A stretch of DNA of 64,000 nucleotides from Octopus vulgaris (taxonomy: Eukaryota): the NCBI GenBank assembly GCA_951406725.2, contig OX597822.1:94488001-94552000 (forward strand), read 5' to 3'. Below the pieces are notes generated by a model. That model did not search any database, had not been told where the DNA came from, and saw nothing but the letters and a program-made list of their open reading frames with translations. This document shows positions 22,986-60,128 of the stretch, one piece after another. The first letter of the stretch is position 1; each line of letters opens with the position of its first letter. The position numbers and the translations under genes were made by a program.

Positions 22986-23302
22986 GTTTGTTTTCTGCAC
23001 TCTGTCTTTCTCTCTCTCCTCTTTCTTATTAAATCTAGCCATTTTGCTAAAAACCAACTGAACTTTTTTTTAAAAATAACATAACATTATAGGTACAAAT
23101 ATGGCGATGTGGTTCAGAAGAAAGACAGATTCTTGGGTTTGCTTCTATGTGTGTATTGTGGCTTATGAAAACTGTCAAAAGCTTCATGTGTCTATGTATA
23201 TATGTGTGTAGATAAATATAAATCTATATATATGCATACATATATGTGTGTGTGCTTATGTGTGTGCATGTGTGCCTGTATATGTATGAATATATATATA
23301 TA

Positions 23303-23658
23303 TAATGGTTGTATACTGTCAATCTCACAAGAACGTGACAGTAGGGGGTACACCACCGTTATATAGCCCTAGGAGGCATCGAACGCCTCCTGACAGCTTC
23401 GACACAATGATCCTGAAACACGGTGTCCCTAGATGCAGTTCCGGCAGTTGGGGGTGTTTGTCTCCCCTTCGTATGTGTATATAAGGACACAGGATAAAAT
23501 GTGTCGAAGCTGTCAGGAGGCGTTCGATGCCTCCTAGGGCTATATAACGGTGGTGTACCCCCTACTGTCACGTTCTTGTTAGATTGACAGTATACAACCA
23601 TTATATCGCTCCACCACCATACACCTCTCTACGAGAGATTTAGAAACTCAATATTTCT

Positions 23659-23660
<2 letters not shown>
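23303..23660 (+). mobile_element. Non-coding fold-back element in (TA)n with a half hammerhead
   Basis: 104-bp inverted arms 23303-23406 / 23500-23603 (1 mismatch). GAAACAC-G-GUGUC^ at 23415-23427. (TA)n flanks. Confidence 0.72.
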
Positions 23661-23717
<57 letters not shown>

Positions 23718-23721
23718 CACA

Positions 23722-23783
<62 letters not shown>

Positions 23784-24073
23784 GAGGTGTTTGTTTCCCA
23801 ACCACATGGTCCTGAATTCAATCCCACTGCATGGCACCTTGGGCAAGCATCTTTTACTATAGCCTTGGGCTGACCAGAGCTTTGTGAGTAGATTTGATAG
23901 ACAGAAACTGAATGAAGCCTATCGTGTGTGTGTGTGTGTATGTATATACATATACACATATATCTCTGTATATTTTCAGAGAGAGAGAGAGAGGAATAGA
24001 GATAAATATATATACATACATACATATATATTTATCTTTATATCTATATATATTTTTAAAGACAAAGATAAAT

Positions 24074-24107
<34 letters not shown>

Positions 24108-24211
24108 ACATACACATACACACACACAAATATACATATCGTTTTTTCAGAAAAACATAAATCTAGAGAAGAAGCACATTCTAAGAAGTAGAGCAGTCAA
24201 TATTTATTAAT

Positions 24212-24338
24212 AGTGAAGGTCAGTTGATAGAGTTACCCTGGATTTCTTGCCTTTATAGTGTATCTTCAGACCCTAAGACCTATTGGCCTATGGCCTATTT
24301 AAAATGCTCAGGGTAACCCTATAGACCAACCTTCACCA
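24212..24338. mobile_element. Older fold-back hammerhead element
   Basis: Imperfect inverted arms gtgaaggtcagttgatagagttaccctg / cagggtaaccctatagaccaaccttcac around a decayed HHR. Abuts (TA)n. Confidence 0.55.
24228..24275 (-). ncRNA. Decayed hammerhead motif
   Basis: Minus strand: UAGGGU-CUGAAGA-UAC.CUAUAAAG.GCA-A-GAAAUCC-A-GGGUA^ACUCUA. The inverted arm at ~24309-24323 preserves GGGUAACCCUA, which restores stem I. Confidence 0.55.
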
Positions 24339-24358
24339 TATATATATATATATATATA

Positions 24359-24951
24359 TGACGTATATTTGCCATTTGAATATATATATATATATATATA
24401 TAATGACGTATATTTGCCATTTGAATATGGCTAACCCCTAAGGGTGGATGCTACTGTAGTTTGTTGCCCCAGGAGGACACCTCCTCCAGCTGGCTATAGA
24501 CACACTTTCTGTGCCCTATCAGTATTTGCAAAGGGAAGCCATCCCTCCCCTCTTCAACTTATGATACACACGGACTCGAGTTTCTGGGTATTGACCCGTC
24601 ATCGGCGTGTGACAATCATAGTTGTCGATGAGAAGTTGGTTCCCTTCACAAATACATATACTTTTTCCAGTATCGATTGACACTGATATCGAAAAAGTGA
24701 AATCAAACAATGATAAATCTCAGAGCGAGTTATAAACAGTAGCAGCAACACATCATGACGTATATTTGCCATTTGAATATGGCTAACCCCTAAGGGTGGA
24801 TGCTACTGTAGTTTGTAGCTAGAGGAGGTGTCCTCCTGGGGCTACAAACTACAGTAGCATCCACCCTTAGGAGTTAGCCATATTCAAATGGCAAATATAC
24901 GTCATGATGTGTTGCTGCTACTGTTTATAACTCGCTCTGAGATTTATCATT
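24359..24951 (-). mobile_element. Retrozyme-like element, 352-bp partial tandem plus terminal fold-back
   Basis: Direct repeat starts at 24403 and 24755 (period 352). 111-bp inverted arms 24709-24819 / 24841-24951. HHR at 24567-24611. An extra ~25-bp end fragment at 24359-24384 is separated by (TA)n. Confidence 0.8.
24567..24611 (-). ncRNA. Type-I hammerhead ribozyme (CCGAUGA core variant)
   Basis: Minus strand: CACACG-CCGAUGA-C-GGGU-CAAU-ACCC-A-GAAAC-UCGA-GUC^CGUGUG. 6-bp stem I, palindromic stem III ACUCGAGU. Confidence 0.8.
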
Positions 24952-52820: not shown

Positions 52821-53139
52821 CTTAAGGGCTTTAAAAAATTAAAATATAGTTTATTGTATTGAATGTTGATAAAGTTATATAAGGGCCTGATGATTGGGGT
52901 TGCATTTTGAGAGGGGTTCCAGGGAAACACGGAGTGGTTTAGGAACCCGAGGATGTACCTCATGAAACACGTGTTGCCAAATAATAAAACAGTAGGTATT
53001 TAAAATAAAAATAAAAATTCTTTTTATATGGTGAGATGTAGGGGCCTACTATCTCTAAATTAAAATATATTTCTTCATTGAGAATAATTTGAACCTCTGT
53101 TATGCCGGAATTTTTATTCCCTAAAAAATATTTAAATAT

Positions 53140-53140
<1 letters not shown>
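52821..53140 (+). mobile_element. Hammerhead-containing non-coding element between (CA)n/(TA)n tracts
   Basis: HHR at 52884-52978, AATAAA just downstream, microsatellite flanks. Boundaries approximate. Confidence 0.55.
52884..52978 (+). ncRNA. Type-I hammerhead ribozyme with long stem II
   Basis: GGC-CUGAUGA-U-UGGGG-UUGCA...GGGUUCC...GGAACCC...UGUA-CCUCA-U-GAAACACGUGUU^GCC. Intact core and palindromic stem III ACACGUGU; stem I is only 3 bp. Confidence 0.72.
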
Positions 53141-53170
<30 letters not shown>

Positions 53171-53171
53171 A

Positions 53172-53381
53172 AGTTAATCCAAACATGAAAACACAAAGAG
53201 AAAATGCAACAACGCGAGGACGTGGAACAAATATAGTATTATTGGATGCTCAGGAAAGAAGGAAAGAAGGAGGGTTTAACGTTTCGGGCGGAGCTCTTCG
53301 TTGGAAGCATAGAAGAAGGAAAGATCCAGAGAAGGGAAGACAGAGGAAAAAAAATCGCCAACGGTACACACGCGGTCACAT
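53172..53381 (-). mobile_element. ~210-bp hammerhead-bearing repeat (copy 1)
   Basis: Reverse complement of 59880-60088, with identical termini atgtgaccgcg...ggattaact. Abuts (TA)n. Confidence 0.75.
53274..53308 (-). ncRNA. Decayed minimal hammerhead motif
   Basis: Minus strand: GCUU-CCAACGA-A-GAGC-UCC-GCCC-GAAACGUU^AAAC. Same element family as 59880-60088. Confidence 0.5.
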
Positions 53382-59879: not shown

Positions 59880-60083
59880 ATGTGACCGCGTGTGTACTGT
59901 TGGCGATTTTTTTCCTCTGTCTTCCCTTCTCTGGATCTTTCCTTTTCCTATGTTTCCGACGAAGAGCTCTGCTCGAAACATTAAACCCTCCTTCTTCCCT
60001 TCCTTCCTGAGCATCCAATAATACTATATTTGTTCCATGTCCTCGCATTGTTGTGTTTTCTCTTTGTGTTTTCATGTTTGGAT

Positions 60084-60088
<5 letters not shown>
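59880..60088 (+). mobile_element. ~210-bp hammerhead-bearing repeat (copy 2)
   Basis: High identity to 53172-53381 in opposite orientation. Followed by (TA)n. Confidence 0.75.
59952..59986 (+). ncRNA. Minimal hammerhead motif (CCGACGA variant)
   Basis: GUUU-CCGACGA-A-GAGC-UCU-GCUC-GAAAC-AUU^AAAC. The sister copy at 53274-53308 keeps the GAAACGUU palindrome. Confidence 0.6.

Positions 60089-60128
<40 letters not shown>

Follow-up and report, generated by a model that had tools for sequence, protein, structure and literature searches.

Two hairpins kept by paired base changes in a hammerhead retrozyme superfamily of Octopus vulgaris

P2 and P3, two hairpins located 3′ of the predicted hammerhead cut, are real hairpins which are kept by paired base changes in a large repeat superfamily of Octopus vulgaris. 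The window, i.e. the whole 64-kb stretch that was analysed (contig OX597822.1, positions 94,488,001 to 94,552,000), lies in a 2.8 Gb genome rich in microsatellites. It contains two elements, A and B, that are copies of this superfamily. Its members are non-LTR retrozymes, non-coding repeats of ~355 nt that carry a type I hammerhead. An earlier note on this DNA had proposed that A and B share a module of three covarying hairpins, possibly an unrecognised structured RNA domain. Covariation was found for P2 and P3, which are indeed unannotated, but not for the first hairpin (hairpin 1), and a stand-alone three-hairpin domain did not emerge. P2 and P3 are predicted to be two branches of a fold that spans the whole ~355-nt monomer. 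New here are the helix-by-helix test, the rejection of the claims on hairpin 1 and on the insertion junctions, and the U1-like distal motif.

Elements A and B in the window

Elements A (23300-23662) and B (24404-24949) each consist of two back-to-back arms inside (TA)n, and all four arm ends in the window adjoin (TA)n. Monomer positions are counted from the predicted hammerhead cut.

23300..23415, minus strand: inverted arm of A (monomer 63-179), whose site 1 end abuts (TA)n
23405..23662, plus strand: direct arm of A (monomer -23 to +234) from a 364-nt family A unit, whose site 2 end abuts (TA)n
24404..24837, minus strand: long arm of B (monomer 88-352, then 1-169) from a 352-nt family B unit, ending at site 1
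24817..24949, plus strand: inverted arm of B (monomer 82-214), whose site 2 end abuts (TA)n
23405..23433, plus strand: hammerhead of family A, 3′ half with GAAA and stem III, predicted cut 23427/23428, CCGAUGA core strand missing
24567..24611, minus strand: complete type I hammerhead of B with CCGAUGA core and palindromic stem III, predicted cut 24573/24572

Both elements had been described as hammerhead-bearing. This holds for B with its complete ribozyme, but the window copy of A begins at -23 inside hammerhead stem II without the CCGAUGA strand and is therefore not a complete ribozyme. The units of families A and B contain the CCGAUGA/GAAA core with stems I-III. All six hairpin stretches that had been named in A and B are present where they had been placed. 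Their similar order and spacing exceeds chance, but it is first of all plain homology, since A32-115 shares 66% identity with B32-109 (E 2.6e-4 when only the two sequences are compared) and the common order thus reflects shared descent. The final ~22 nt of B are duplicated at 24360-24381 (minus strand), past a (TA)n spacer, and resemble a stuttered re-start at site 1.

A superfamily of at least 13 families

Searches of the own genome yielded 1,829 (A) and 2,520 (B) first-look candidates. The best copies of the two families are 96-100% identical and show a tandem spacing of 364 bp (A) and 352 bp (B); natural cut-to-cut monomers of 352-364 nt were found in arrays. Further families came to light in the flanks of the first loci. 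The superfamily has tens of thousands of copies in at least 13 families, with identities down to ~47%, and this copy number and divergence amount to a natural mutagenesis; all families stem from a single genome and are related by descent. A pattern for P2/P3 had 18,470 matches in the genome compared to 28 in the control, and a U3-A8 hammerhead pattern had 3,278 compared to 139 with the reversed control. Among 133 unique hammerhead-pattern matches from the loci collected then, a sample partly picked for these families, the module was present in 125, and the remaining eight were without proper stems. An HMM alignment gave 448 matches, of which 277 span the module and 208 are unique; the latter were reduced to 50 representatives at 8% distance and to 13 families at 22%. 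The expectation that the module would recur in further family members was borne out in at least 13 families.

In everything that sequence can show, the elements resemble animal non-LTR retrozymes. None of the loci examined had Neptune RT/EN sequence directly joined to a unit with the module. A scan of metagenomes for the module gave one match that was judged to be chance. Among the holders listed for a family F array, none is recorded as RNA, and the contigs aligned to the window reveal neither ends nor strand. The genome also contains a second repeat of ~250 nt (53128-53381, minus strand; 59880-60128, plus strand; locus L202, 1580-1790) that ends in (TA)n and carries a minimal hammerhead (CCGACGA..GAAACG). 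The family profile did not match its two window copies and the P2/P3 module is absent from them, so the module is not general to hammerhead repeats here.

Paired base changes in P2 and P3

23486..23505, plus strand: P2 hairpin (6 bp) of A
24499..24515, minus strand: P2 hairpin of B
23508..23541, plus strand: P3 hairpin of A with an outer stem of 4 bp, an internal loop and an inner stem of 5 bp
24465..24495, minus strand: P3 hairpin of B, in which the last outer-stem base deviates from the family

P2 is a 6-bp stem of the GACACA/TGTGTC type, and P3 consists of an outer stem of 4 bp, an internal loop and an inner stem of 5 bp. The outer stem (AGCY/RGCT) had been overlooked earlier, and the third hairpin of B had been given as AGGAGG/CCTCCT; the homologous register of P3 pairs GGAGG with CCTCC around a loop of 6 nt. 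The P2+P3 segments are more stable than dinucleotide shuffles with z-scores of -5.1 (A) and -2.7 (B).

Covariation was measured on a first set of 26 representatives (31 clusters minus four with deletions or truncation and one that could not be parsed) with pairwise identities of 47-96% and a mean of 63%. Canonical pairs filled 377 of 390 cells, compared to 296 ± 19 expected from columns that change independently of each other along the tree (P=0.001). Nine out of the 15 P2/P3 pairs showed two-sided change, where 3.2 were expected. With the 50 HMM-aligned representatives, 711 of 741 cells (96%) were canonical over the 15 pairs. The test of single pairs imitates R-scape by a G-test with APC in which the substitutions are reshuffled over the tree, and is not R-scape itself. 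Within the proposed set of pairs, it gave E-values of 0.014, 0.029 and 0.045 for three inner P3 pairs of the 50 representatives, while the best P2 pair reached 0.059 (0.004 in the set of 26). When all 17,391 column pairs of the 50 representatives competed, no module pair was found at E<0.05. The test is low-powered, as true hammerhead pairs reached E-values of only 0.075-0.14; the C3-G8/U3-A8 pair of the hammerhead covaries across families. RNAalifold on a MAFFT alignment missed P2 owing to misalignment.

The sole significant match in the all-pairs comparison joins cut+7 with +47 (E 0.007; G-C 25, A-T 20, C-T 5). It has no helix around it and lies outside the proposed structure model.

The direction of the changes is informative as well. 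On internal branches, Watson-Crick pairs changed to another Watson-Crick pair 8.5 times, to G.U 8.35 times, to A.C 1.15 times and to another mismatch 1.3 times. Pairing in P2/P3 was thus kept in ~17 of 19 changes, and the preference of G.U over A.C (~8:1) indicates that the RNA in ribozyme sense is the strand that folds. On tip branches the same classes counted 1.25, 19, 13 and 8, and the bias is absent there, as expected from decay after insertion. In some subfamilies of family F, A.C mismatches are fixed in P3.

Scans against Rfam gave nothing relevant and recovered no hammerhead family either: the module of A had no match at E≤10, and that of B had only sub-threshold matches on the opposite strand, with no family at gathering score. 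A derivation of P2/P3 from U1 or U2 RNA was considered and rejected for lack of likeness (P 0.45-0.58).

Hairpin 1 and the fold of the whole monomer

23450..23467, plus strand: hairpin 1 of A as described earlier, without covariation and predicted only without the upstream rod strand
24529..24549, minus strand: hairpin 1 of B as described earlier (24533-24549), overlapping a promoter-like conserved motif (24529-24541)
23467..23483, plus strand: 3′ strand of the long rod extending stem I in A, its partner strand being absent from this copy
24640..24655, minus strand: 5′ strand of the distal rod of B, complementary to 24522-24537
23548..23621, plus strand: predicted P4 stem of A, enclosing P5 (23565-23590) and a single-stranded segment with end site 1 (~23606)
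23625..23661, plus strand: tail of A with the P6 hairpin CTC..GAG (23625-23637) and end site 2 (~23661)
24416..24431, minus strand: P5 hairpin (GCCA..TGGC) of B, ~12 nt ahead of end site 1

The canonical cells of hairpin 1 amounted to 194 of 236 or 214 of 288 depending on the register, and no pair covaries. Its arms paired no better within their own family (-9.6 kcal/mol) than across families (-10.5 kcal/mol). The strand upstream of the hammerhead, paired with positions 12-58, yielded -42 kcal/mol with its own partner and -22 kcal/mol across families, and the rod strand preferred its own partner in 9 of 13 cases of this cross-family duplex test. When eight natural monomers were folded, circular or linear, hairpin 1 had 0 bp, while the rod had 42-47 bp. 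In the same folds, the probability was 0.98-1.00 for P2 and 0.39-1.00 for the inner stem of P3, which drops to 0.39-0.63 in some F subfamilies. Pairs local to the hairpin 1 region were obtained only when the RNA was cut at 235. In whole monomers, hairpin 1 is thus predicted to give way to the rod of 42-47 bp, a continuation of hammerhead stem I.

In the predicted monomer, the hammerhead sits on this long rod, which opens into P2, P3, P4, P6 and P8. P4 encloses P5 and a loop of ~20 nt and is the weakest helix, with its own partner being the best in two out of ten cases of the cross-family test. The sequence of the rod changes freely between families; P2 and P3 keep their stem lengths, the internal loop and near-invariant letters, and the letters of the TGGGGCT end of P3 are 72-100% conserved.

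Promoter-like signals

23458..23471, plus strand: conserved TGAYCTCCCYT-type motif of A, likely a U1-like distal promoter element, with a weak match in A
24668..24687, minus strand: putative PSE-like element of B with ATCAGTG in the 5′ arm of the predicted P8, with a weak single-copy score

In hairpin 1, the letters of the 3′ arm are 70-98% conserved and those of the 5′ arm 32-82%, and the rod partner is variable. ATCAGT is found at -57 to -61 in 33 of the 35 U1/U2 loci of this genome, and TT(G/A/C)TCTCCCTT at -249 to -256 in 15 of 15 U1 loci and 0 of 20 U2 loci. For 21 full retrozyme regions, the best PSE match was located at -125 to -105 from the cut in 15 and the best match to the U1 motif at +25 to +43 in 19. 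The predicted transcription start lies 57-66 nt ahead of the cut and reads ATCG in both A and B (24629 in B, ATCG.., like U2), and the retrozyme distal motif lies ~262-269 bp upstream of it. Across ten related families, the hairpin 1 region resembled the U1 promoter (P=0.005), while P2-P3 did not match it (P=0.945). Scored in A and B alone, the promoter motifs were weak (shuffle P 0.09-0.80). The conserved 3′ arm of hairpin 1 is probably read as DNA, as a distal element of the promoter, since it resembles the motif found ~255 bp upstream of the U1 genes of this genome and has a similar distance from the start predicted by the PSE. The pLTRs of the Neptune families N1 and N3 carry the U1-like distal motif twice each.

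Two further promoter-like motifs were rejected, as neither is conserved: GTTCGATGC, which resembles a Pol III B-box, is confined to family A, and the octamer-like TTGCAAAT to the B/C group. Locus L310, a U2 array copy, is without a PSE and has an unrelated sequence with an A-rich end ahead, as if an element had been inserted at the U2 start. The PSE is also missing at locus L317.

Insertion ends and junctions

In total, 106 inverted insertions were found, 91 of them with both ends classifiable and 15 unclassifiable. One arm ended at site 1 (~165-180) and the other one at site 2 (~215-235) in 89 of the 91, and (TA)3 was present within 20 nt of 129 out of 212 arm ends. A different end site for each arm is the signature of the Penelope 'tail', which is present at one end only. 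Both end sites lie 55-120 nt further 3′ than P2-P3. The module had been proposed as a priming signal, which this result contradicts: both of the fixed sites at which insertions end are well 3′ of it, and therefore it is not the priming site.

The fold-back junctions had been placed in or beside the module. This is correct for both window copies (A at 63, B at 82-88) but does not extend to the 140 arm ends of 70 clean inverted insertions, for which the share of junctions in P2-P3 (55-115) was 0.22 compared to 0.21 expected from the arm lengths (P=0.41). In the range 20-115, 58 of 140 (0.41) were observed against 0.34 (P=0.044, pooled over differently selected sets), and the P values of the single-selection subsets were 0.10, 0.77 and 0.10. 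Junctions are scattered along the unit, and the module is neither where priming takes place nor an evident hotspot of fold-back.

The two arms stopped at most 20 nt apart on the monomer in 17 of the 70 insertions, where eight are expected if stops are uniform. This looks as if two RTs had met on one template.

Autonomous Neptune elements

The genome contains a young, full-length Neptune element of ~4.4 kb (locus L141, 2960-7360) with 400-nt pLTRs and a U3-A8 hammerhead. Its active family has an open stretch of 811 codons with RT and a weak GIY-YIG match, and copies are 91-100% identical. The family ends at +150 and +192, with separate sites for the arms in 12 of 13 inverted pairs. No obvious ATG opens the RT-EN frame of the L141 element. 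The ATG that follows the pLTR is ~1.2 kb upstream of this frame, which would allow for an intron or a second frame. A second active family, N2 (loci L278, L280 and L285, 3′ of the GIY-YIG ORF), also has a U3-A8 hammerhead; its long pLTR is full of CCAAT/TGACGT repeats, and its tail hairpin CTCG..CGAG resembles P6 of the retrozymes.

A search of autonomous Penelope pLTRs for the module had been proposed earlier. It was not found in the Neptune ends examined, namely the N1 pLTRs of 30 RT loci and the 3′ ends of 30 GIY-YIG loci, which represent a few of the PLE families of the genome (13,209 and 6,136 first-look candidates). The only matches within the 30 GIY-YIG loci were an unrelated insertion on the opposite strand and a weak one (E 0.038) upstream of the endonuclease match. 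An N2 end weakly resembles the P2-P3 joint (P 0.003 and 0.007 in eight post hoc tests), and this likeness is absent from the sister N2 subfamily. Locus L202 was rejected as a module-bearing autonomous end, as it is a fragment with another hammerhead repeat inserted.

Comparison with known systems

Animal non-LTR retrozymes are described from coral, Mytilus (350-390 bp) and axolotl (330/350 bp) in the available text of PMC7229834 and bioRxiv 10.64898/2026.07.22.740005. According to the same portions of these sources, mobilisation by Penelope enzymes is proposed and no cis-signal is named. The octopus elements are alike in their non-coding units of 352-364 nt with one type I hammerhead each, in occurring as dispersed monomers and tandem arrays, in the highly self-paired predicted circle and in the proposed mobilisation by Penelope. 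Cleavage and circles were demonstrated for the published elements and are predicted for the octopus elements. As far as their available text goes, the animal retrozyme papers give MFE folds of single sequences and contain no covarying non-catalytic domain, internal promoter or analysis of insertion ends. No description of a covarying non-catalytic retrozyme domain was found in the literature searched; the supplementary figures S4-S6 and S9 of PMC7229834 may show related folds.

With PLE pLTRs, the retrozymes share back-to-back inverted arms, the tail at one end only (PMC3846280, PMC8557442), two RT start sites 3′ of the hammerhead, AT-rich or (TA)n targets and U3-A8 core variants, as far as described in the accessible parts of these two papers, PMC11167929 and PMC4209133. 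They differ in having no ORF, a tail of 45-55 nt compared to 30-40 and a hammerhead with a long rod; the autonomous Neptune ends examined here are in turn without P2/P3. For Poseidon of Anolis, PMC11167929 reports that the RNA needed in vitro extends from ORF position +20 to +172, covering the hammerhead cut at +26 and the region 3′ of it, and that RT starts at two internal positions, which the two retrozyme end sites fit.

The tandem repeat of newt satellite 2 bears a hammerhead (PMC7229834), and an internal snRNA-type Pol II promoter was reported for it (Coats et al. 1994, as cited in PMC2220036); the octopus elements would be alike, their promoter being predicted from matches to U1/U2 motifs, as far as the consulted portions of these sources describe the newt repeat.

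Possible function of P2 and P3

Chances are about even that P2 and P3 are part of a docking surface that presents two start sites to a Neptune-type Penelope RT, because they sit between the cut and the two start sites, in the region a Penelope RT needed in vitro. What speaks most against docking is the absence of P2/P3 from the autonomous Neptune ends examined. In such a mechanism, an snRNA-type promoter inside the tandem unit would start transcription ~20 nt before the hammerhead, and cleavage would free monomers or circles. The PSE of this promoter would sit at about -115 relative to the cut, and the 3′ arm of hairpin 1 would supply its U1-like distal motif. The 42-47-bp rod would open to a multibranch head, whose first branches in the predicted fold are P2 and P3. 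The Neptune RT/GIY-YIG protein would bind this head, nick both strands of a TA repeat and copy from site 1 on one strand and from site 2 on the other. The products would be back-to-back arms that stop at arbitrary points, and hairpin 1 would result incidentally from the promoter motif and the rod.

A more specific form of the docking reading is put forward tentatively, and we regard it as rather doubtful: P2-P3 might be an aptamer that the parasite evolved, that the autonomous elements lack and that captures a dimer of the Neptune RT for twin priming at two fixed sites, in a unit that also encodes an snRNA-type promoter. If true, the 355-base unit would be promoter, ribozyme and RT-capture device in one, and P2-P3 the first cis-acting domain for mobilisation to be defined in an animal retrozyme. 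Within the superfamily, P2, P3 and the rod, which are read as RNA structure, can be told apart from the U1-like motif and the PSE, which are likely read as DNA, and from the two sites where the RT starts. As the genome also has an active Neptune protein, binding and priming can be tested directly.

Of the two main rivals, the first is somewhat unlikely: P2/P3 would bind not the RT but a host protein that stabilises or circularises the RNA, retains it in the nucleus or silences the hammerhead within the circle. The absence of P2/P3 from the autonomous Neptune ends examined would agree with this, the near-invariant stem and loop letters (TGGGGCT) are expected of sequence-specific binding, and PMC7229834 argues in its available text that the hammerhead of the circle is blocked in vivo by something other than self-pairing. 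The missing likeness to U1/U2 RNA and the missing Rfam match speak against it, as does the position of P2/P3, which matches the region that the Penelope RT needed in vitro (accessible part of PMC11167929).

The second main rival, a purely architectural role in which P2/P3 keep the circle compact and leave rod, hammerhead and start-site loop free with no factor reading them, is clearly unlikely. The fold of the whole monomer is kept, including the rod, P5 and P8, and PMC7229834 predicts a high degree of self-pairing for the circles of animal retrozymes; but the rod sequence turns over, while P2/P3 hold their stem lengths, internal loop and letters.

It is very improbable that the whole module is an enhancer of the snRNA-type promoter at DNA level with incidental hairpins. 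The module does occupy the place of the U1 distal motif, 180-270 bp ahead of the next predicted start; the U1 promoter has its match in the 3′ arm of hairpin 1, and one of three U2 promoter types has a marginal one in P2-P3 (P=0.045, uncorrected). The compensatory changes and the G.U/A.C bias of P2/P3 require a single-stranded fold of the sense RNA, and P2/P3 are unlike the U1 promoter and the other two U2 types; a reading at DNA level is accepted for the motif in hairpin 1 alone. Finally, a three-hairpin priming signal where reverse transcription starts or folds back is hardly credible: both window junctions at monomer 63-88 and the slight pooled excess in 20-115 would suit it, but the 3′ ends lie outside the module, the share of junctions in 55-115 is as expected, none of the single-selection subsets reaches significance and covariation is lacking in hairpin 1.

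Hammerhead cores

The hammerhead core alternates repeatedly between C3-G8 and U3-A8 within this one superfamily. The cores with C3-G8 are CUGAUGA, CCGAUGA, CCGACGA and CUGAAGA, and those with U3-A8 are UUGAUAA, UUGACAA and UUGAAAA.
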